From positions 1-24,002 of IMG/VR virus record IMGVR_UViG_3300022178_000315: a stretch of 24,002 nucleotides of DNA; one strand, 5' to 3'. The first letter of the stretch is position 1. Each line of letters begins with the position of its first letter. A program made the position numbers and the translations under genes. Positions 1-10,098 of the stretch are shown piece after piece. Below the pieces are notes generated by a model. The model searched no databases. It saw only the letters and a list, made by a program, of their open reading frames with translations, and had not been told where the DNA came from. This DNA comes from a virus (lineage: Duplodnaviria > Caudoviricetes).

Positions 1-296
1 CAATTAAAGGAAAAGAATTAGATCCTGAAAAATTAATAGAACTTCAAACCAAAATAAATCTAGCTGAAGCTTCACATCGAACGTTATTTGTTGCCGGATG
101 GAGACCTTTTATAGGTTGGATATGTGGTTTTGCATTAGCTTACAATTTTGTTATACGTGATTTATTTATTTGGATAACAAAAACAACAGACGCGCCACCA
201 CCATTGCAAATGGAACATTTAATGACAGTATTGCTGGGAATGCTCGGACTTGGCGGACTAAGAACATACGAAAAAATAAAAGACAAGGTAAAATAA
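1..296 (+). CDS. 3-TM holin (GTA_holin_3TM-like), 5'-partial
   Basis: Not in the ORF track. The frame starting at nt 3 reads IKGKELDPEKLIELQTKINLAEASHRTLFVAGWRPFIGWICGFALAYNFVIRDLFIWIT...LMTVLLGMLGLGGLRTYEKIKDKVK, with TAA at 294-296. The WRP..GW and LGMLGLGGLRTYEK motifs plus hydrophobic helices are characteristic of this holin family. Confidence 0.85.
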   Translation, partial: IKGKELDPEKLIELQTKINLAEASHRTLFVAGWRPFIGWICGFALAYNFVIRDLFIWITKTTDAPPPLQMEHLMTVLLGMLGLGGLRTYEKIKDKVK

Positions 297-1743: not shown

Positions 1744-1971
1744 GTGGACCATGTTATAAGAAAAATAAGCATAGGTTCTGACTATAAAAACGAGGCTATG
1801 CATTATGCCGTAGGCCAGCAAGTTTACGGCGGACACACTATATGTAATATAATGTTCGATAAAGAAGAACAATCTTACAATATTCATATAAAGAAGAACA
1901 ACGAAATTTTGCCTTGGAAGAAGTTTAATAAAAACATGGCAATATCTGTTGAATATGATTTAGAATACTAA
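1744..1971 (+). CDS. Hypothetical phage protein
   Basis: 75 aa with a GTG start; its stop overlaps the next start (TAATG); globular beta-like composition. Confidence 0.75.
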   Translation: MDHVIRKISIGSDYKNEAMHYAVGQQVYGGHTICNIMFDKEEQSYNIHIKKNNEILPWKKFNKNMAISVEYDLEY

Positions 1972-2576
1972 TGAATAGTATTTATCAGTTTATAATAAAA
2001 CCGATAGGCGAAAGATATAATAATGAGTTGAACGTTGGTGATAAAAAGCTAATTATCAACTCTAGTATCTCTAGTCATAAATTTGTTAATAGAAAAGCAG
2101 AAGTAGTTGCTGTGCCTTTAGCGTTTGAAACAGAACTAAAAAAAGGTGATAAAGTTATTGTGCATCATAATTTATTTAGAAGATATTATAATCAAAAAGG
2201 TAGATCTGTAAATAGCGGAAAATACTTTAAAGATGATATGTATTTTGCTTCTGAAGATCAGATATACATGAAACAGGTTAATAACAGCTGGAAGACAGTC
2301 AAAGACTATTGCTTCGTCAAGCCAGTTGTTGATAAGGACAACTCTAGCTTAAGCAAACTAAAAGAGCGCGTTGGTATAGTAAAATACGGAAACAACGTCT
2401 TAGAAGCTCTTAAAATCAATAAAGGGGATTTAGTTGGATTTAAAAAGAACAGAGAATTTGAGTTCTTGATAGATGGTGAAATACTTTATTGCATGGAATC
2501 AAATGATATTTTAATTAAATATGAAAATAAAGGAAACGAAACTGAATATAATCCAAGCTGGGCAAATAGCAGTTGA
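1971..2576 (+). CDS. Co-chaperonin GroES/Cpn10-like protein with two tandem GroES-like domains
   Basis: Two copies of the Cpn10 pattern: FIIKP...KAEVVAVP...LKKGDKVIV...ASEDQIY and YCFVKP...VGIVKYG...INKGDLVGF...EFLIDGEILYCMESNDIL. Confidence 0.7.
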   Translation: MNSIYQFIIKPIGERYNNELNVGDKKLIINSSISSHKFVNRKAEVVAVPLAFETELKKGDKVIVHHNLFRRYYNQKGRSVNSGKYFKDDMYFASEDQIYMKQVNNSWKTVKDYCFVKPVVDKDNSSLSKLKERVGIVKYGNNVLEALKINKGDLVGFKKNREFEFLIDGEILYCMESNDILIKYENKGNETEYNPSWANSS

Positions 2577-2799
2577 AGAACTTATAAAGGTGGCAAAAGA
2601 AAAGATCGTTGACTCAGAAGATGATATCTCTGCTGACAGACTTAAAAACGCTGCCGCTACAAAGAAACTTGCTATATTTGATGCTTTTGAAATATTAGCT
2701 AGAATAGAATCAGAAGAAGATCTTTTAAACGATAAACCAAAAACTAGCGCTATTAAAGCCGAAGAGTTTAAAGGTTTTGCAGAAGGAAGATCTAGATAA
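2521..2799 (+). CDS. Probable terminase small subunit
   Basis: 92-aa helical protein directly upstream of TerL and coupled to it by TAATG; overlaps the GroES-like gene by 56 nt. Function is inferred from position only. Confidence 0.5.
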   Translation: MKIKETKLNIIQAGQIAVEELIKVAKEKIVDSEDDISADRLKNAAATKKLAIFDAFEILARIESEEDLLNDKPKTSAIKAEEFKGFAEGRSR

Positions 2800-5015
2800 T
2801 GTATAAGCAAAATCTATACCATATAGTAGAAGACCATATAAAGTCAAACGTTCTAAGTAGAATGAATAGGCTTAAAAAATGGGAATACGGATACAATAAA
2901 GAGCATGACATAGTTGTCATAAGCAAAACAGGACAAATAGGAGAGATATATAGTATACAAAATCTATTAATAGCTCTTCCGTTGGCTGAAGACGTGTACA
3001 AGTGTTCTAAGAAGAAAGAAGAACAACGTTGGAAAGTTTTAGAATATCCATCTGAATTAAATAAAATAAAAACAGTTTATGATTGGAACGAAAGACCAGT
3101 CGAGTTTAAAGAAAAATGGTACGAGTACATTAACAAAGAGTTTGTTCGTCGCGAAGAAGGCTATTGGTTCTATAGCAACGGCGTTCCTACTTATATTACT
3201 GGTTCTCAGTACATGTACCTGCAGTGGACTAAAATTGACGTGGGGTCAGCAGATTTTCGCGAGTCAAACAGGTTATTCTACATATTCTGGGAGGCTTGTA
3301 AATCGGACAGTAGGTGTTACGGAATGTGCTATCTTAAGAACAGACGGTCTGGATTTAGTTTCATGGCATCATCCGACACAGTTAACCAGGCAACAATTTC
3401 AAGAGATGCTAGGTTTGGAATACTCTCCAAGTCTGGAGCTGATGCTAAGAAAATGTTCACTGATAAAGTTGTACCCATATCGATTAACTACCCCTTCTTT
3501 TTTAAACCAATACAGGACGGAATGGAACGTCCAAAGACAGAATTATCATACAAAGTACCTTCGAAAAGGCTCACGCGTAATTCCATCAAAGAAACAACGG
3601 AAGATTTACAGGCGGGTCTTGACACCACGATCGACTGGAAGAATACAGGGGACAACTCCTATGATGGAGAAAAACTCAAGCTTCTCGTCCACGATGAATC
3701 GGGTAAATGGGAAAGACCAGATAACATCCTCAACAACTGGAGGGTTACGAAAACAACGTTAAGATTAGGTAGAAAAATAGTAGGTAAGTGCATGATGGGA
3801 TCTACTTCAAACGCATTAGACAAAGGTGGATCAAATTTTAAAAAACTATACGAATCTTCGGACGTCACAAAAAGAAACCGCAACGGACAGACTAGCTCAG
3901 GATTATATAGTTTGTTCGTACCTATGGAGTGGAATTACGAAGGATACATTGATTCTTATGGAATACCTGTATTCGACACTCCAAAAAAACCAATTAAAGG
4001 TATAGATGGTGAAGATATAGATATAGGTGTTATATCACATTGGGAAAATGAAGTAGATGGACTACACGACGACCAAGATGGCTTAAACGAATACTATAGA
4101 CAGTTTCCAAGAACAGAGAAACACGCTTTTAGAGACGAAGCTAAAGAATCTTTGTTTAACTTAGGTAAAATATACGAGCAAATAGACTATAATGAAGACT
4201 TACGTAATACTAATGTTGTTACACAGGGTAATTTTCAGTGGGAAGGTGGGATTAAAGATACTAGAGTGCTGTTTGTTCCTAGTAAAAGTGGAAGATTTTT
4301 TGTTAGCTGGGTTCCTCCGGTTACACTACAAAATAGATACAATATAAAAAATAACGTTAAGTATCCTGGTAATGAGCACTGTGGAGCTTTTGGATGCGAT
4401 AGTTACGATATATCTGGTACTGTTGATGGTAAAGGTTCTAAAGGATCTTTACATGGATTAACTAAGTTTTCAATGGAAGACGTACCGCCTAACTTATTTT
4501 TTTTAGAATATATAGCTAGACCACAGACAGCTGATATATTTTTTGAAGATGTTTTAATGGCTTTGGTTTTTTATGGTATGCCTATACTAGCAGAGAACAA
4601 CAAGCCAAGACTCTTATATTATATGAAAAGAAGAGGTTACAGAGGTTACTCTATGAATAGACCTGATAGGGTTATGCATAAATTATCTGTAACAGAAAGA
4701 GAGATAGGTGGAATACCTAACTCAAGTGAAGACATAAAGCAAGCTCACGCAGCAGCTATAGAGGATTATATAGAAAACCACATTGGTTTACTAAACGAAG
4801 GTTATGGCAGCATGTACTTTCAAAGAACTTTAGAAGATTGGGCGAAATTTAATATAAACAATAGGACTAAGCACGATGCATCTATAAGCTCTGGTTTAGC
4901 TATGATGGCTTGTAATAAACATAGATACACGCCTGTCGCGCAAAGAGTAATATCTAAAGTATCTTTAGGTTTTAGAAAATATAACAATTCAGGTCAAAAT
5001 TCAAAAATAATATAA
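2799..5015 (+). CDS. terL: Terminase large subunit
   Basis: 738 aa with Walker A-like YLKNRRSGFS, Walker B LKLLVHDESGKW, coupling motif GSTSN, and RNase H-type nuclease motifs AFGCDSYD and KHDASISSGL; lies immediately upstream of the portal. Confidence 0.93.
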   Translation: MYKQNLYHIVEDHIKSNVLSRMNRLKKWEYGYNKEHDIVVISKTGQIGEIYSIQNLLIALPLAEDVYKCSKKKEEQRWKVLEYPSELNKIKTVYDWNERPVEFKEKWYEYINKEFVRREEGYWFYSNGVPTYITGSQYMYLQWTKIDVGSADFRESNRLFYIFWEACKSDSRCYGMCYLKNRRSGFSFMASSDTVNQATISRDARFGILSKSGADAKKMFTDKVVPISINYPFFFKPIQDGMERPKTELSYKVPSKRLTRNSIKETTEDLQAGLDTTIDWKNTGDNSYDGEKLKLLVHDESGKWERPDNILNNWRVTKTTLRLGRKIVGKCMMGSTSNALDKGGSNFKKLYESSDVTKRNRNGQTSSGLYSLFVPMEWNYEGYIDSYGIPVFDTPKKPIKGIDGEDIDIGVISHWENEVDGLHDDQDGLNEYYRQFPRTEKHAFRDEAKESLFNLGKIYEQIDYNEDLRNTNVVTQGNFQWEGGIKDTRVLFVPSKSGRFFVSWVPPVTLQNRYNIKNNVKYPGNEHCGAFGCDSYDISGTVDGKGSKGSLHGLTKFSMEDVPPNLFFLEYIARPQTADIFFEDVLMALVFYGMPILAENNKPRLLYYMKRRGYRGYSMNRPDRVMHKLSVTEREIGGIPNSSEDIKQAHAAAIEDYIENHIGLLNEGYGSMYFQRTLEDWAKFNINNRTKHDASISSGLAMMACNKHRYTPVAQRVISKVSLGFRKYNNSGQNSKII
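3079..3762 (+). CDS. Candidate overprinted gene (+1 frame of terL), lipoprotein-like
   Basis: 227 open codons in the +1 frame. Contains a KKAIGSIATAFLLILLVLST-C signal/lipobox-like segment (alternative TTG start at 3142) and an R/S/T-rich tail; the region is locally richer in C/G. Confidence 0.45.
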   Translation: MIGTKDQSSLKKNGTSTLTKSLFVAKKAIGSIATAFLLILLVLSTCTCSGLKLTWGQQIFASQTGYSTYSGRLVNRTVGVTECAILRTDGLDLVSWHHPTQLTRQQFQEMLGLEYSPSLELMLRKCSLIKLYPYRLTTPSFLNQYRTEWNVQRQNYHTKYLRKGSRVIPSKKQRKIYRRVLTPRSTGRIQGTTPMMEKNSSFSSTMNRVNGKDQITSSTTGGLRKQR

Positions 5016-5018
5016 TAA

Positions 5019-7427
5019 ATGGTCTACAATACTAATAATAGCATCTTTCCAGATCAGGTGGTACCTGAAGAAGAAAAGAAATCATTTGAATATGGTTTAG
5101 CTGTTGGAAACGCTATTGAACAAGAATGGTTTAGAAATAACAGTGGTCAGGATAGGTTTTCCTATAATTTCCAGAACTTCAATAGACTAAGATTATACGC
5201 TAGAGGTGAACAACCTGTACAGAAGTATAAAGATGAATTATCTAATAACGGTGACTTGTCTTATTTGAATTTAGACTGGAAGCCAATACCGGTTCTTTCT
5301 AAGTTTGTAGATATAGTAGTTAATGGCATGACTGAAAAGGGTTATGAAATGAAAGCTTTTGCTTCAGACCCATTTGCTTTAAAGCAACGTACTGATTTTG
5401 CTGCTAACGCCTTAAGAGACATAGAAAACAAAGAAGCTATAGATAGATTATCTCAAGCTACTGGTCAAAACTTCTATGCTTCTACTGATCCAGAAAACAT
5501 ACCTAGAGACAAAAACGAATTAGACTTAATGCTACAGCTTAACTACAAATTAAGTGTAGAAATAGCTGAAGAAGAGGTTGTTAGCAACGTGCTTAAGTAT
5601 AATAAATTTGATGAAATTAAAAAAAGACTAGCTTATGACCTTACCGTTTTAGGAATTGCAGCTAGTAAAACTAGCTTTAATCTTTCTGAAGGTATAACAA
5701 CTCACTACGTGGATCCAGCTAACTTAGTTTATTCAGCTACAGATGATCCTAATTTTGAAGACATTTATTATGTTGGAGAAATTAAAGCTTTAACTTTGCC
5801 TGAAATAAAAAGATTATTTCCTAATCTAACTAACGAAGAGTTAGAAACTATACAGAAGTATCCAGGTAGACAGAATTACGCTCAAAGCGATTGGCAGGTA
5901 AATAGTGATACAGAGAAACATCAGGTTTTATTTTTTGAATACAAAACGTATCACGATCAAGTGTTTAAAATAAAACAAACTGAACAAGGTTTAGAAAAAA
6001 CATTAGAAAAGCAAGACACATTTAATCCTCCTCCAAGTGATAACTTTGAAAGAGTGTCTAGATCTATTGAAGTATTATATACTGGAGCGAAAGTTTTAGG
6101 TATGGGAGATACTATGTTAGAGTGGAAGTTAGCTGAGAACATGACAAGACCTTACGCTGATACTACTAAGGTTAATATGAATTACTGTATATCAGCTCCT
6201 AGAATGTATCAAGGGCGTATAGAATCTATAGTTAGTAGAACAATAGGTTTCGCTGATATGATTCAATTGACTCATTTAAAGCTACAGCAAGTATTAGCTC
6301 GTATGGTTCCTGATGGAGTTTACTTAGACGTAGACGGGTTAGCTGAAGTTGACTTAGGCAATGGAACGAACTATAATCCAGCAGAAGCATTAAATATGTA
6401 CTTCCAGACCGGAACAATAGTAGGTAGATCATTAACTCAAGATGGCGAGATTAATCGTGGTAAAGTGCCAATTCAAGAGCTTCAAAGTTCTTCTGGTATA
6501 TCTAAAATACAAGCAATGATACAAACGTATCAATACTACTTGCAAATGATTAGAGATGTAACAGGATTAAACGAAGCTAGAGATGGAAGTTCTCCAGATA
6601 AAAACGCTTTAGTAGGTCTACAAAAACTAGCAGCAGCAAACTCTAATACGGCTACAAGACATATATTACAGTCTTTAATGTATATTACGATTAGAACATG
6701 TGAAAATATAAGTTTAAGGGTAGCTGATGTGTTGCAGTTTCCATTAACAAAAGCATCTTTACTTAATAGTATAAATGCTTTTAATGTAGCTACTCTAAAG
6801 GAAATAGATACTCTATCGTTACATGACTTCGGTATATTCTTAGATCTAGAACCAGACGAAGAAGATAAAGCCCAATTAGAAAAAAGCATACAAATAGCAT
6901 TGCAATCTGGAGCTATAAAACTTTCAGATGCTATAGATATAAGAGATATACAAAACATAAAGCTAGCTAATACATATTTGAAGTTTAGACAAACTGAAAA
7001 TCAAGAGGCTGAAAGAGCTGCACAGATGGAAAACATTCAGGCTCAAGCTCAAGCTAATAGTGAATCTGCTGAAAAAGCTGCCGAGGCTGAAGTTCAAAAA
7101 CAACAAGCTTTAGCTCAAACTACTGTTCAAATAGAGCAAGCTAAGTCTCAGTTTGAAATACAACGCATGGAGCAAGAGGCTGAAATAAAAAGAGGTCTAA
7201 TGGCTGAAGAGTTTTCATATCAAATGAAACTAGCAGAAATGCATGCTAAAGCTAATTCTCAAAAAGAAGCTCAAATAGAGGACAGAAAAGACAAAAGACT
7301 ACAAATGCAAGGCACTCAACAGAGTGAACTTATAGATCAAAGACAAAACGATCTGCTACCTAAAAACTTTGAATCAACTAATGACGGCTTAGGCGGTTTT
7401 GATTTAGAACAGTTTACCCCGAGATAG
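5019..7427 (+). CDS. Portal protein (crAss/P22-like podovirus type)
   Basis: 802 aa between TerL and scaffold/MCP, with a long Q/E/A-rich C-terminal coiled coil (barrel) and a MIRDVTGLNEARDGS motif typical of such portals. Confidence 0.88.
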   Translation: MVYNTNNSIFPDQVVPEEEKKSFEYGLAVGNAIEQEWFRNNSGQDRFSYNFQNFNRLRLYARGEQPVQKYKDELSNNGDLSYLNLDWKPIPVLSKFVDIVVNGMTEKGYEMKAFASDPFALKQRTDFAANALRDIENKEAIDRLSQATGQNFYASTDPENIPRDKNELDLMLQLNYKLSVEIAEEEVVSNVLKYNKFDEIKKRLAYDLTVLGIAASKTSFNLSEGITTHYVDPANLVYSATDDPNFEDIYYVGEIKALTLPEIKRLFPNLTNEELETIQKYPGRQNYAQSDWQVNSDTEKHQVLFFEYKTYHDQVFKIKQTEQGLEKTLEKQDTFNPPPSDNFERVSRSIEVLYTGAKVLGMGDTMLEWKLAENMTRPYADTTKVNMNYCISAPRMYQGRIESIVSRTIGFADMIQLTHLKLQQVLARMVPDGVYLDVDGLAEVDLGNGTNYNPAEALNMYFQTGTIVGRSLTQDGEINRGKVPIQELQSSSGISKIQAMIQTYQYYLQMIRDVTGLNEARDGSSPDKNALVGLQKLAAANSNTATRHILQSLMYITIRTCENISLRVADVLQFPLTKASLLNSINAFNVATLKEIDTLSLHDFGIFLDLEPDEEDKAQLEKSIQIALQSGAIKLSDAIDIRDIQNIKLANTYLKFRQTENQEAERAAQMENIQAQAQANSESAEKAAEAEVQKQQALAQTTVQIEQAKSQFEIQRMEQEAEIKRGLMAEEFSYQMKLAEMHAKANSQKEAQIEDRKDKRLQMQGTQQSELIDQRQNDLLPKNFESTNDGLGGFDLEQFTPR

Positions 7428-7456
7428 GGAATTATTAATTTTTATTATATTATATT

Positions 7457-8665
7457 ATGTCAGAAACAAAAGAAGTAAAATCAGAAGGAGAATTTAAATT
7501 AAAAAAGAAAACTTCAAAAATGAAAGGCCAAGGAAATGTTGTTCCTGAGGTTACTAAGATAGATTTAAGTAAAAAAACAGAAGAAGATGCCATTCAAGTC
7601 GGAGAAACAGAAACAGTGGTTGATGATAAACAAACCAGAGATTTACCAGAAATGGAAAAAGAAGTACGGAGCGACTCCAGTGAAGTTACTAAAATTGATC
7701 TCAAAGAAAAAATAGAATCACCTTTAGAATTAGTAGAAGATGAAAACGATAACCCTGAAGAGGTCACAATGGTTGGAGGCACTGAAGGTCCCGACACCCC
7801 ACAGGAACAAAAAGAAGTATTACCGCAAGCTCAAACACAAGACTACCCAGAAAATGTAGATAAACTTATTGAGTTTATGAAAGAAACTGGCGGAACTATT
7901 GACGACTACGCTAGGCTTAATGCTGATTATAGCGACGTTGACGGAGAAGCATTATTAAAAGAATATTACAAACAAGCTAAACCACATTTAAATTCAGAAG
8001 AAATTGACTTCGTAATTGAAGACTCTTTTAGTTTTGATGAGGATTTAGACGAAGCAAGAGATATTCGAAAGAAGAAACTTGCATATAAAGAAGAAGTTGC
8101 AAAAGCCAAAAGCTATTTGGAATCGCTTAAGGATAAATATTACGCAGAGATCAAGTTGAGACCTGGGGTTAATCCTGAGCAACAAAAAGCTACAGACTTT
8201 TTTAACCGATACAACGAAGAGCAGGCAGCTACCAAAGTTAACCAAGACAGATTTATTAGCCAAACAGACGAGCTTCTTAACAACGATTTCAAAGGTTTTG
8301 ATTTTAAAGTTGGAGAGAAAAAGTTTAGATATGGCATTAAAGATCCAGTTAAGGTTGCAGATAATCAAAAAGACATTTCCACGTTCATCAAGACGTTCTT
8401 GAATGACAAAGGAGAAGTCGTAGATACAAAAGGTTATCATAAAGCTTTGTATGCAGCGCGAAACGCAGATACTATTGCACAACACTTTTATGAGCAAGGA
8501 AAAACAGACGCCATAAAAGGACAGATTGCTAAGGACAAGAATATAACTACAGAACCTAGAAAAACACAAGATGGTAATGTATTTGTAAATGGATTTAAAG
8601 TAAAAGCTATTAGCGGGCAAGACTCTTCAAAACTTAAAATTAAAACAAGAAAATTTAACAATTAA
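7457..8665 (+). CDS. Capsid scaffolding/assembly protein
   Basis: 402 aa with a very acidic low-complexity N-terminal part, helical C-terminal part and basic C-terminus (KLKIKTRKFNN); located between portal and MCP. Confidence 0.7.
   Translation: MSETKEVKSEGEFKLKKKTSKMKGQGNVVPEVTKIDLSKKTEEDAIQVGETETVVDDKQTRDLPEMEKEVRSDSSEVTKIDLKEKIESPLELVEDENDNPEEVTMVGGTEGPDTPQEQKEVLPQAQTQDYPENVDKLIEFMKETGGTIDDYARLNADYSDVDGEALLKEYYKQAKPHLNSEEIDFVIEDSFSFDEDLDEARDIRKKKLAYKEEVAKAKSYLESLKDKYYAEIKLRPGVNPEQQKATDFFNRYNEEQAATKVNQDRFISQTDELLNNDFKGFDFKVGEKKFRYGIKDPVKVADNQKDISTFIKTFLNDKGEVVDTKGYHKALYAARNADTIAQHFYEQGKTDAIKGQIAKDKNITTEPRKTQDGNVFVNGFKVKAISGQDSSKLKIKTRKFNN
7587..7715 (+). CDS. Nested small basic protein (MPFKS-type), +1 frame within the scaffold gene
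   Basis: ATG 7587 to TAG 7713-7715 gives 42 aa: MPFKSEKQKQWLMINKPEIYQKWKKKYGATPVKLLKLISKKK. This resembles a recurrent small phage protein pattern MPFKSxKQRx(W/Y)...PEIA.(K/R)W. Confidence 0.65.
   Translation: MPFKSEKQKQWLMINKPEIYQKWKKKYGATPVKLLKLISKKK
7740..7859 (+). CDS. Second nested small basic protein, +1 frame within the scaffold gene
   Basis: ATG 7740 to TAG 7857-7859 gives 39 aa: MKTITLKRSQWLEALKVPTPHRNKKKYYRKLKHKTTQKM. Confidence 0.55.
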   Translation: MKTITLKRSQWLEALKVPTPHRNKKKYYRKLKHKTTQKM

Positions 8666-8676
8666 AATTAAAAATT

Positions 8677-10098
8677 ATGGCAATAGCACCTAATTTTGGC
8701 TCGATAGTACCATCGCAGTCACAACAATTATTACAATCGAACTACTTACAGTTCAATAACAGCACGTCTGACTTTGCTCAGCAATATCTACCTGAAATCT
8801 ACGAACAAGAAGTAGAGCGTTACGGAAACAGAACTTTATCTGGATTCTTACGTATGGTTGGAGCTGAAATGCCAATGACGTCGGATCAAGTTATTTGGTC
8901 AGAACAAAATAGATTACACGTTGCTTACGACGGATGTACCAATGATGACGCAAACGGTATTGGAATTCCAGTAGCTGCTGGTATTGTAAACGTTATTTCT
9001 CCCGGCCAAACTATCGTTCTTATGGACGCCGCTGGTGTTGAGTTGAAAGCTGTAGTTACATCTTCAAACCCAGGAACTGGCGCTTTAATCGTAGCCCCTT
9101 ATACTGCTGCTAATACAGCTGCACTTGCTGCGACTGGAATTAAGATATTTGTATACGGTTCTGAATTCAACAAAGGATCTCAAACAACTAACTGGGATGG
9201 AGCTGCTGGAGCAATCACGGGAACTACTAATGTTAGTATTGACCCTACGTTTACTCAATTTAGCAACTCACCAATTATTATTCGTAGCAATTACAGTATC
9301 AATGGATCTGACATGGCTCAAATCGGTTGGGTTGAAGTTGCAACTGAAGACGGAACTTCTGGATACTTATGGTATTTAAAAGCAGAATCTGAAACTCGTT
9401 TACGTTTTGAAGACTACTTAGAAATGAGTGTAGTTGAAGGAGAACTTGCTGCTGCAGGATCTGGAGCTTTAGCTGGAGGATTTAAAGGTACGCAAGGTTT
9501 ATTTGCTGCTGTAGAAGCTAGAGGTAACGTTGAAACTGCATTTAGTGGAGCTAACTTAACTGACTTTGATAATATCTTGAAAAATTTAGATACTCAAGGA
9601 GCGATTGAAGAGAACATGCTTTTCTTAGATCGTACAACTTCATTAGAAATTGATGACATGCTAGCTGGTATTTCTGCAGGAGCAAACGGAGGTACTGCTT
9701 ATGGATTATTTGAAAACTCTGAAGAAATGGCATTAAACTTAGGGTTTAGCGGTTTCCGTAGAGGATCTTACGATTTCTATAAAACAGACTGGAAATATCT
9801 AAATGACGCGTCAACTCGTGGAGCAACAACTGGAATTTCTTCTATTGAAGGAGTATTAGTACCAGCTGGAACTTCTACTGTTTACGATCAAATTTTAGGA
9901 ACTAACATCCGTAGACCATTCTTACACGTGCGATACAGAGCTTCTCAAACAGAAGATCGTCGTATGAAGTCTTGGTTAACTGGATCTGCTGGTGGTGCTT
10001 TCACTTCTAGTTTAGATGCAATGGACGTTAACTTCTTATCTGAAAGATGTTTAGTAGTACAAGCTGCTAACAACTTTGTATTGTTCAAAGGAGCATAA
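8677..10098 (+). CDS. Major capsid protein
   Basis: 473 aa after the scaffold, with highly biased codon use and a following terminator. Motifs QQYLPEIYEQEVERYGNR, GTQGLFAAVEARGN and GFSGFRRGSYDFYKTDWKYLND are typical of capsids of Bacteroidota podoviruses (HK97 fold inferred). Confidence 0.88.
   Translation: MAIAPNFGSIVPSQSQQLLQSNYLQFNNSTSDFAQQYLPEIYEQEVERYGNRTLSGFLRMVGAEMPMTSDQVIWSEQNRLHVAYDGCTNDDANGIGIPVAAGIVNVISPGQTIVLMDAAGVELKAVVTSSNPGTGALIVAPYTAANTAALAATGIKIFVYGSEFNKGSQTTNWDGAAGAITGTTNVSIDPTFTQFSNSPIIIRSNYSINGSDMAQIGWVEVATEDGTSGYLWYLKAESETRLRFEDYLEMSVVEGELAAAGSGALAGGFKGTQGLFAAVEARGNVETAFSGANLTDFDNILKNLDTQGAIEENMLFLDRTTSLEIDDMLAGISAGANGGTAYGLFENSEEMALNLGFSGFRRGSYDFYKTDWKYLNDASTRGATTGISSIEGVLVPAGTSTVYDQILGTNIRRPFLHVRYRASQTEDRRMKSWLTGSAGGAFTSSLDAMDVNFLSERCLVVQAANNFVLFKGA

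Follow-up and report, generated by a model that had tools for sequence, protein, structure and literature searches.

The gene that lies between the portal and capsid-like genes of an uncultured tailed phage raises the question of whether a single long reading frame in the head region can hold further, complete genes. The window analysed here is a stretch of 24,002 nucleotides, positions 1 to 24,002 of IMG/VR record IMGVR_UViG_3300022178_000315 (Duplodnaviria; Caudoviricetes). An earlier note on this DNA had proposed that a small basic gene is hidden within the scaffold gene, in its +1 frame. The ORF was found exactly at the coordinates and with the peptide sequence quoted there, offset by 130 nt from the host start. 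The acidic stretch that the note had placed over it is the same sequence read in the host frame. The comparative analysis described below makes it probable that this ORF (ORF1) is a nested protein-coding gene, which is kept under purifying selection with the host frame open and has predicted internal initiation at its own ATG. The features of the locus are collected in the table.

Table. Features of the locus, in positions of the window.
Feature	Position	Strand	Description
Portal gene, directly 5' of host gene	5019..7427	+	phrog_6547, E 3.4e-135
Host gene, scaffold position, 402 aa	7457..8665	+	ORF call and gene order
Predicted ORF1 translation-initiation region	7557..7616	+	A-rich, almost without predicted structure
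Putative nested gene 1 (ORF1), 42 aa, basic	7587..7715	+	ATG at 7587, TAG ending 7715; +1 frame of host gene
Putative nested gene 2 (ORF2), 39 aa, basic	7740..7859	+	Same +1 frame; begins 24 nt past ORF1 stop
Capsid-like virion structural gene, directly 3' of host gene	8677..10098	+	phrog_13704, E 3.1e-97

The order of portal gene, host gene and capsid-like gene is the one that positions a phage scaffolding protein, and the label "scaffold" is used for the host gene on the strength of gene position alone. No Pfam or PHROG family matched the host gene and no homology to a described scaffold family was found, while a homologue in a Flavobacterium phage is annotated as "structural protein". The gene 3' of it also has weak major-head and Crass_capsid matches (E 0.017 and 0.051). 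In the host protein, conserved parts of ~43 aa at the N-terminus and of aa ~131-402 at the C-terminus (the C-domain) are connected by an acidic linker (codons ~44-135), within which both nested genes are carried. Over ORF1, Asp and Glu make up 29% of the host-frame residues, and aromatic residues and Cys are absent (0%). An EVTKIDL repeat, which might be taken to mark an insertion site, flanks the nested region; two such motifs are also present in relatives that lack the nested gene.

Homologues of the host gene from 80 IMG/VR loci, together with the window, make up a set of 81. ORF1 is present in 65 of these, in every case in the +1 frame and wholly within the host gene, and its start codon is ATG in 64 copies and TTG in one. 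A further 27 nested copies were found, all 27 of them in more distant scaffold homologues (37-56% identity), again all in the +1 frame and wholly inside the host gene, and all with the ATG kept. The portal gene lies upstream in each of the 27 and a capsid-like gene downstream in 21, the remaining contigs ending first. The whole ORF is thus embedded in a longer ORF of the same strand and another frame in 65/65 and 27/27 copies. The carriers form a large group of uncultured aquatic phages. ORF1 has no counterpart at 16 of the 81 loci, so the gene is dispensable in some lineages, and neither Flavobacterium phage elemoF nor Maribacter phage Panino, the two cultured relatives inspected, carries it. 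A search for stand-alone copies in four gene-less records gave none (4/4), the records being 20-59% complete and the positive control reaching only E 0.0115.

The pattern of substitution was used to ask which frame is constrained. Because the linker aligns poorly, codon alignment of all pairs guided by the host protein gave an indistinct signal; alignments anchored on the nested ORF were used instead. Among 367 same-length pairs, which are not phylogenetically independent, differences at nested codon positions 1, 2 and 3 number 1650, 1422 and 3690. The 22 independent (disjoint) pairs have 43, 39 and 102 substitutions at these positions (chi-square p 1.5e-9), with synonymous/non-synonymous counts of 105/79 (nested frame) and 27/152 (host frame). 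The corresponding pN/pS over the ORF1 bases, also from disjoint pairs, is 0.17 when they are read in the nested frame, as against 1.41 in the host frame; the C-domain of the scaffold, read in its own frame as a control, has 0.14. The earlier note had asked whether the +1 peptide is conserved better than the host frame, and it is (mean amino acid identity 0.847 versus 0.658 over the 367 pairs).

The host frame over ORF1 is nevertheless open in 53/53 unique sequences. When the nested gene was randomised synonymously, the host frame stayed open in 0.3% of trials (maximum 1.3-1.5%). Selection is therefore seen in both frames, as amino acid constraint in the nested frame and as the maintenance of an open reading frame in the host. 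The means by which the host frame is kept open can be read in codon usage. The frequency of third-position T is 0.04-0.05 in nested copies, as compared with 0.27 for 32 stand-alone homologues and 0.40 for the genes of the window. T before AA, AG or GA codons occurs in 0/799 and 0/472 cases (0/1271) in nested copies versus 200/738 (27%) in stand-alone copies. The synonymous sites of ORF1 are, by this comparison, recoded such that the host frame contains no stops and stays acidic.

These data bear on the possibility that the 402-codon ORF is not one protein, that the small genes are ordinary ones, that the scaffold starts downstream (for example at ATG 7766) and that the open host frame is incidental. 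Such an arrangement would account for the host-frame pN/pS of 1.41, which shows no amino acid constraint over ORF1, for the matches of the cultured relatives, which span aa 121-397 of the host protein only, and for a GAGG five bases 5' of an in-frame ATG (7755-7768). However, it leaves without reason both the host frame that is open in 53/53 and 25/25 unique sequences, against the expectation from random synonymous recoding, and the avoidance of T described above. In the gene-less lineages, moreover, the N-terminal ~43 aa of the host protein are joined straight to the C-domain, and one loss took the form of an in-frame 69-nt deletion. As to the GAGG, Bacteroidia do not use Shine-Dalgarno sites according to PMC6847099. 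Separate genes of this kind are quite improbable.

It could be argued instead that ORF1 is a by-product which is never translated into a protein of its own, the +1 reading being conserved only as a reflection of constraint on the nucleic acid or on the scaffold protein. A Glu-rich linker automatically gives a Lys-rich +1 reading, the acidic linker of Maribacter phage Panino holds an unrelated Lys-rich +1 ORF of 54 aa, and expression of ORF1 is deduced from sequence alone. The substitutions, however, fall where the third codon position of the +1 frame coincides with the first of the host frame, and pN/pS is 0.17 in the nested reading versus 1.41 in the host reading. The ATG is kept in 64/65 and 27/27 copies, the peptide is homologous to annotated stand-alone genes, and the +1 frame of the gene-less linkers is full of stops. 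We regard the by-product explanation as exceedingly improbable. Dual coding, as proposed in the earlier note, is thus upheld by the signature of selection on the nested reading, the open host frame and a profile match to stand-alone proteins.

A nested gene requires a start of its own. The ORF1 start is the sole ATG within the 30-nt upstream stretch. Among 44 unique contexts, A is found at positions -3, -6, -12 and -13 in 70, 89, 82 and 86%, versus 37, 44, 59 and 30% at the same positions of 789 control ATGs. The predicted minimum free energy of the start region is -1.60 versus -6.74 kcal/mol, and for 60 of 62 genes the region belongs to the least-structured quartile. In Flavobacterium johnsoniae, initiation is stimulated by A at -3, -6, -12 and -13 and by low structure (PMC6847099). 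The phage presumably infects Flavobacteriia, since its only cultured relatives infect Flavobacterium, Cellulophaga and Maribacter, and the start-site argument depends on this host. For ORF1 the predicted route is internal initiation at its own ATG within the late head-gene mRNA; the site is A-rich and unstructured, like those used by Bacteroidia ribosomes. From its start context, ORF1 is likely translated from its own start codon. Contigs from four metatranscriptome runs cover 7300-8700 without an indel, which attests presence only; such contigs show neither transcription nor starts nor strand, and the libraries may hold DNA. Their sole base difference is A>G at 7343, upstream of the host gene.

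A +1 peptide might alternatively be made without a start of its own, as a frameshift fusion to the scaffold N-terminus produced by ribosomal slippage on an upstream A-run. The window has an AAAAAAA run 10-16 nt 5' of the ATG, and a few public gene calls (P0007, P0056) cross from the scaffold into the nested frame, perhaps through assembly indels. Yet the A-run is missing from some lineages, the window has a +1-frame stop six codons 5' of the ATG, and the RNA-library contigs are free of indels. The ATG and the Met-Pro-Phe start are conserved as they are in the stand-alone proteins, with the module always at residue 1. A frameshift product is highly improbable in view of these features.

The earlier note had pointed to stand-alone phage proteins of the MPFKS type, and such proteins do exist. 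Phage 023Pt_psg01 has an annotated 39-aa CDS (URG13095.1) that is a stand-alone homologue, and Prochlorococcus phage P-RSP2 and phage C75C1 have homologous stand-alone ORFs that are unannotated. The three peptides have identical first residues at the start. The relationship emerges from profiles: tblastn of the window peptide against cultured phages gave only E 0.2-0.3, and the window peptide matched no Pfam or PHROG family at E<=1, while the nested and stand-alone profiles align with hhalign at 99.6% (E 1.1e-24). A search with the family profile at E<=1e-3 returned 2921 cluster representatives (50% identity), and the size of the family is estimated at 7700 IMG/VR stretches. ORF1 carries the module Met-Pro-Phe ... 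Gln8 ... Pro17 ... Trp23, and M1, P2, Q8, P17 and W23 are invariant in 75 sequences including the window, which places it in the family. In most of the best 150 of the 2921 representatives the module occupies residues 1-30. Family members mostly stand alone, often just 3' of a portal gene, or make up the N-terminal ~30 residues of longer proteins. Mycobacterium phage Papyrus gp8, encoded directly after the portal gene, matches phrog_1375 (E 2e-18), and Streptomyces phage FlowerPower gp48 is a further member.

The family shares its core motif with phrog_1375, a group of unknown function; members of phrog_1375 have a basic leader before the motif, whereas the family described here begins at Met-Pro-Phe. 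Of nine nested relatives, two match phrog_1375 at E<1e-3 and five at E<1e-2 (E 6.5e-5 to 7e-3), a link that exists via profiles only. Pfam gave nothing consistent for the 75 family members, and none of them (0/75) matches DUF3008 (PF11450) at E<=1, for which there is only a 0.82 Atlas lead. No earlier description of the locus or the family was found in the literature searched on genes nested in or overlapping scaffold genes, nor in that on out-of-frame embedded small phage proteins, DUF7230 or phrog_1375. Judged by its profile, the Met-Pro-Phe module defines a very large phage protein family that is unannotated and unnamed.

The genes around the stand-alone relatives give a clue to function. 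At 45 non-nested loci, many of which are close relatives so that the counts are not independent, a portal gene within two genes upstream is the commonest named neighbour (12 loci), phrog_3287 "virion structural protein" precedes long forms directly or almost directly in 4, and other head genes are adjacent in 2. A GroES-like gene adjoins in 8 of these loci and lysis genes in 5. This neighbourhood points to the head module. The earlier note had put forward a DNA-binding core or an assembly factor. The ORF1 product may be a small basic accessory of head assembly, located at the portal or in the procapsid interior and co-expressed with the scaffold, a tentative assignment that we place somewhat short of an even chance. 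Structure comparison added little: the best PDB matches by sequence had E 0.9 and 6, Foldseek against the PDB gave nothing below E 5.7, and Foldseek against BFVD gave only unnamed family members (E 0.1-0.2).

The nested gene could also be real with a role outside head assembly, as a small nucleic-acid-binding regulator (of late or scaffold mRNA, for example) or as a factor in lysis timing or host interference. Its product is strongly basic with a predicted two-helix hairpin, some lineages do without the gene, the P-RSP2 copy sits in an early or middle region, and holin or endolysin genes lie beside the family member in 5 of the 45 loci and in FlowerPower. Against such roles stand the lack of a transmembrane segment, the location of the nest itself within the head module, the portal as commonest named neighbour, to which Papyrus gp8 can be added, and the position of the long forms (4/45) after a head-and-packaging gene. 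A role outside the head is rather unlikely on this balance, and a head-assembly accessory is the reading we prefer.

ORF2 was missed by the earlier note. It is present in 28 of the 81 loci, with 11, 18 and 43 substitutions by codon position over 9 independent pairs and a pN/pS of 0.18, and 69 relatives of stand-alone type were found. By this evidence ORF2 is a second predicted nested gene with the same selection signature as ORF1. It has a Lys-rich C-terminal motif in common with Pfam DUF7230 and phrog_6310. Its relatives score 15-20 bits against DUF7230, below the gathering cut-off of 27 bits, and ORF2 of the window has no Pfam hit and matches phrog_6310 only at E 0.065. The predicted structure at its start is -5.88 versus -6.42 for the rest of the gene, and only 10 of 27 starts belong to the least-structured quartile. 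Translation of ORF2 might occur by re-initiation 21-33 nt past the ORF1 stop. A further open +1 frame (3079..3762) lies inside the terminase gene.

If the term "overprinted" in the earlier note is taken to mean birth of ORF1 de novo, this part of the proposal was not supported: the family is far wider than the present phage group and mostly stand-alone, so the nest probably arose by capture of an existing gene, and birth in place is rather unlikely. The linker of the scaffold gene, acidic and disordered, would have taken up a small basic gene that already existed. With the frame set back by one base, Lys codons (AAR) turn into Glu-type GAR codons, so a basic gene fits inside an acidic linker. 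A first tree, with gene-less lineages at the base, had suggested a gain within the group; this was rejected once 27 more distant scaffolds were added. In the extended tree (FastTree, rooted on two long outgroup branches), both gene-less groups lie deep inside gene-bearing clades. In one lineage the ORF was lost via an in-frame 69-nt gap that starts just 3' of the nested ATG. The nested gene has, on this tree, been lost twice through in-frame deletion. A bolder and improbable reading is that mobile small basic genes use the linker as a landing pad. They would be inserted in the +1 frame, which the Lys-to-Glu codon relation allows with the host left intact, and later be recoded synonymously, and their products would bind the acidic linker that the same DNA encodes, or the portal, and time scaffold action or exit. 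If this were true, tailed phages would have a general, overlooked way of acquiring overlapping genes, by gene-in-gene capture in place of overprinting.

Gene finders skip genes inside genes, and the locus is therefore annotated as one gene where comparative evidence indicates three. It is an unusually clean case: diverged copies number in the dozens, the stand-alone family serves as a control and the synonymous recoding is visible. The locus suggests that an overlap may originate when a ready-made gene is captured, and that it can survive divergence of the host protein down to 37% identity. The tie of the family to the portal and head module provides a concrete target for tests of function. 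The substitution T7588C would change the nested ATG to ACG and the host codon from GAT to GAC, which is synonymous, so that the two functions would be separable.

Known phage systems resemble the locus in part. The internal proteins of T4 carry capsid-targeting sequences, and a short N-terminal module found on small and large head proteins would fit a targeting role; this is an analogy only, and no sequence or structural link between these sequences and the ORF1 module was found. Lambda Rz1, which uses the +1 frame, lies inside Rz and is, like ORF1, a small gene wholly within a larger phage gene in another frame. The two genes of a spanin pair are embedded, overlapped or separated in different phages (PMC6139136). 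Spanins are membrane proteins of lysis and their two products bind each other. The present locus differs from them in having a head-assembly host gene, two unrelated guests in tandem and soluble basic peptides. Lysis gene E of phiX174 occupies the +1 frame inside the external scaffold gene D, so that, as with ORF1, a small +1 gene lies within the gene of a scaffolding protein. However, E is a membrane protein thought to be overprinted in a tiny ssDNA genome, whereas the locus described here belongs to a tailed dsDNA phage and its guest has thousands of stand-alone relatives.

The window covers an entire IMG/VR virus record (24,002 bases, rated 39% complete), and all its genes lie on the + strand. 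The small gene that the earlier note placed inside the scaffold gene, here ORF1, was read correctly, its sequence agreeing exactly with our translation of 7587..7715. The holin and GroES-like families of the window also adjoin stand-alone ORF1 homologues on other viral contigs.

Features of the window, in order of position
Feature	Position	Strand	Remarks
Holin fragment	3..296	+	PHROG match, phrog_3427
GroES-like gene	1971..2576	+	
Terminase large subunit (terL)	2799..5015	+	phrog_6681, E 6e-164
227-codon ATG ORF	3079..3762	+	230-codon stop-free run in the +1 frame of terL
Portal	5019..7427	+	phrog_6547, E 3e-135
402-codon 'scaffold' gene	7457..8665	+	No family match; named by position only
EVTKIDL, first copy	7547..7567	+	Scaffold frame
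ORF1	7587..7715	+	42-codon ATG ORF, +1 frame of the 402-codon gene
EVTKIDL, second copy	7682..7702	+	Scaffold frame
ORF2	7740..7859	+	39 aa, same +1 frame, 24 nt beyond the ORF1 stop
Capsid-like virion structural gene	8677..10098	+	phrog_13704, E 3e-97
Further virion structural genes	window	+	

Cultured-phage relatives of the scaffold-position protein found by tblastn are all distant (Flavobacterium 'elemo' phages, Cellulophaga phages and Maribacter phage Panino) and align only to its residues 121-397. The nested ORF is absent from both that were inspected, elemoF and Panino. Closer relatives came from IMG/VR, where 80 loci of 52-100% identity were fetched, making 81 genes with the window. An ORF of 37-52 codons begins 82-196 nt downstream of the host ATG in 65 of them, always in the +1 frame and wholly within the host gene. 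The earlier note would have counted a broken +1 frame or missing ATG in related scaffolds against the gene; the ORF is intact and starts with ATG in 64 of the 65 copies. The other copy (in locus L077, region 3122) has TTG at the start position and a more diverged peptide. The copies comprise 53 distinct nucleotide and 41 distinct protein sequences and fall into several variants. In the 16 genes lacking the ORF, the linker is shorter and its +1 frame is riddled with stops. A search seeded with stand-alone homologues added 27 nested copies in scaffolds of 37-56% identity, all in the +1 frame and all with a portal upstream (27/27). Four public gene calls on relatives (P0004, P0007, P0045, P0056) pass between the scaffold and nested frames in one direction or the other, and may be assembly indels or genuine fusions. 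The Panino homologue (L087:1319-1483) has an unrelated 54-codon Lys-rich +1 ORF within its acidic linker, which shows that a Glu-rich linker alone suffices to produce such ORFs.

Because a synonymous site in one frame is non-synonymous in the other, the position of substitutions discriminates between the nested and host frames. Across 367 pairs of equal length, differences at the three nested codon positions number 1650/1422/3690. The +1 peptide is better kept than the zero frame, with mean amino-acid identities of 0.847 and 0.658. The 22 disjoint closest pairs give 43/39/102 (chi-square p 1.5e-9), with synonymous/non-synonymous counts of 105/79 in the nested frame and 27/152 in the host frame. 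The pN/pS of ORF1 is 0.17 in the nested frame and 1.41 in the host frame; the control, the scaffold C-terminal domain, gives 0.14 in its own frame and 2.22 in a shifted one. Judged by this frame-specific pattern and by pN/pS, ORF1 is constrained to the same degree as an ordinary gene, and the host frame across it is without constraint on residue identity.

The host frame is nevertheless open over ORF1 in 53/53 unique sequences, and with the nested pN/pS this bears out the dual coding proposed earlier. When nested codons were swapped for synonymous ones by the window's codon usage, the host frame stayed open in 0.3% of trials (maximum 1.3-1.5%). The stand-alone homologues served as a natural control for codon choice. 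T at third positions falls from 40% in the window's long genes and 27% in the stand-alone genes to 4-5% in the nested ones; G is 10%, 23% and 51%, respectively. T before a codon starting with AA, AG or GA, which makes a host-frame stop, occurs in 0/799 and 0/472 nested cases, against 200/738 stand-alone and 649/1554 in the long genes. The host-frame residues across ORF1 are 29% Asp/Glu, with no aromatics and no Cys. In guest-less lineages the approximately 43 conserved N-terminal residues of the host are joined directly to the C-domain, and one loss of ORF1 is an in-frame 69-nt gap beginning right behind the nested ATG. The long ORF might be an artefact rather than one protein; the open frame, the avoidance of T, the N-terminal join and the in-frame loss jointly make this unlikely. 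The two EVTKIDL copies of the host frame are 135 nt apart and flank the ORF1 start region; gene-less relatives have two such motifs too, but spaced only about 12 codons.

ORF2 was found in 28/81 loci (21 unique nucleotide, 16 unique protein versions) and is restricted to one well-supported clade (24/26 tips). Differences by its own codon position are 11/18/43 (9 disjoint pairs, p 7.6e-6), pN/pS is 0.18 against 0.72 in the host frame, and the host frame across it is open in only 2% of synonymous randomisations. Its profile matches 69 small proteins (best E 4e-16), which are separate gene calls, some on contigs >100 kb. ORF2 relatives match Pfam DUF7230 below threshold; matches to phrog_6310 are weak (E 0.014-0.065) and come from ORF2 itself and one nested variant. 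The linker is thus home to two unrelated guest genes.

The open +1 run in terL also exceeds synonymous randomisation (mean 58, maximum 138, 2000 trials), and at least 160 open codons are retained in 50/61 relatives. Substitutions across it track the terL frame (third-position share 0.75 inside, 0.69 outside), so its peptide sequence is not conserved. The product would contain a hydrophobic stretch.

A profile of 28 nested ORF1 peptides, run against 1.84 billion cluster representatives, had 2921 protein matches at E<=1e-3, 19 of them at E<=1e-10, with 'hypothetical protein' the name returned throughout. Among the best 150 matches most are 33-110 aa long and match at residues 1-30; others of 170-570 aa have the same module N-terminally. 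Seven proteins of 250-550 aa (P0010, P0016, P0021, P0023, P0025, P0041, P0063) start with this 30-residue module and have part of a second copy towards the C-terminus. M1, P2, Q8, P17 and W23 do not vary among 75 sequences. The stand-alone phage homologues that the earlier note pointed to do exist, the nested and stand-alone sets matching in profile-profile comparison at 99.6% (E 1.1e-24). An estimated 7700 or so IMG/VR stretches have the family pattern, and the family is rare among cultured phages. It is annotated in 023Pt_psg01, unannotated in P-RSP2 and C75C1, and includes gp48 of Streptomyces phage FlowerPower and its relatives. Mycobacterium phage Papyrus gp8 is a more distant member (phrog_1375, E 2e-18). 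That phrog was matched by 5/9 nested variants tested (E 6.5e-5 to 7e-3) and not by the window's own peptide; no Pfam family was matched by ORF1 or family members.

The AlphaFold model of ORF1 (75-sequence input; mean pLDDT 77.8, residues 1-20 at 87-93) has an extended N-terminus, a helix at 6-15, a kink at Pro17 and a helix at 17-28, and ends in a basic tail modelled with low confidence. The searches found no resemblance to a solved or named structure. Gene context was drawn from 45 non-nested loci, many of them near relatives, using 150 of 168 neighbouring proteins. A portal lies at most two genes upstream in 12, other head genes are adjacent in 2, a GroES-like gene lies two genes downstream in 8 and lysis genes are adjacent in 5. 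In 4 (L094, L103, L109, L110), a long form comes directly or nearly directly after a 'virion structural protein' gene of the head-and-packaging class (phrog_3287). The remaining loci have unnamed neighbours. With Papyrus gp8 immediately downstream of the portal and the nest itself in the head module, our best, still tentative, guess is that ORF1 encodes a small basic protein accessory to head assembly. Through its N-terminal module the protein, or a longer cargo, could be docked at the portal or inside the procapsid.

The hosts of the cultured relatives are Flavobacteriia. In Flavobacterium johnsoniae, according to PMC6847099, initiation dispenses with Shine-Dalgarno pairing; A at -3, -6, -12 and -13 and a lack of structure promote it, and AUG is depleted around starts. 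At these positions A occurs in 70/89/82/86% of 44 unique ORF1 start contexts and in 37/44/59/30% of 789 other out-of-frame ATGs; A content from -20 to -1 is 64% against 37%. Upstream ATGs within 30 nt number 0.02 per sequence. For the 60-nt segment on the ATG, the MFE is -1.60 kcal/mol, against -6.74 for segments elsewhere in the gene; in 60/62 genes the ATG segment ranks in the least-structured quartile. The ORF1 start fits the F. johnsoniae preferences and may be used in this way. The structure at the ORF2 start is unremarkable (MFE -5.88 against -6.42; least-structured quartile in 10/27), and ribosomes might re-initiate there after terminating at the ORF1 stop, 21-33 nt upstream. Contigs from four metatranscriptome runs span 7300-8700 with no indel, which attests presence in RNA libraries, not transcription; their sole base difference is A>G at 7343, upstream of the host gene.

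The earlier note regarded ORF1 as overprinted. Since the family extends well beyond this phage group and most of its members stand alone, capture of a pre-existing gene is the probable origin. A first tree with gene-less lineages basal was overturned after 27 more distant scaffolds were added. The enlarged FastTree phylogeny has 92 tips and was rooted with elemoF and Panino, two long branches that leave the root uncertain; every early branch in it is gene-bearing, and the two gene-less groups, of 6 and 5 tips, sit well inside gene-bearing clades. The best reading of this tree, given its uncertain root, would be a single gain at the base of the group and two losses, with ORF1 retained as identity of the host protein dropped to 37%. 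Peptide variant 'e' is scattered across the scaffold tree (at least 4 changes) and occurs in genes 78% identical to that of the window. At this identity, the scaffold genes of loci L015-L019 have a nested peptide very different from the window's, of a Met-Pro-Phe-Lys-His type that is scattered over the tree. Such scatter suggests that the linker cassette may have been exchanged between lineages.

Neither the locus nor the ORF1 family turned up in our literature search. Out-of-frame nested phage genes as such are already known, as with E of phiX174 within scaffold gene D. Spanin pairs are described in PMC6139136 as embedded, overlapped or separated. Beyond these examples, the present nest has a tailed-phage head gene as its host, two tandem guests from families that stand alone elsewhere, and a guest measurably recoded to suit the host frame.
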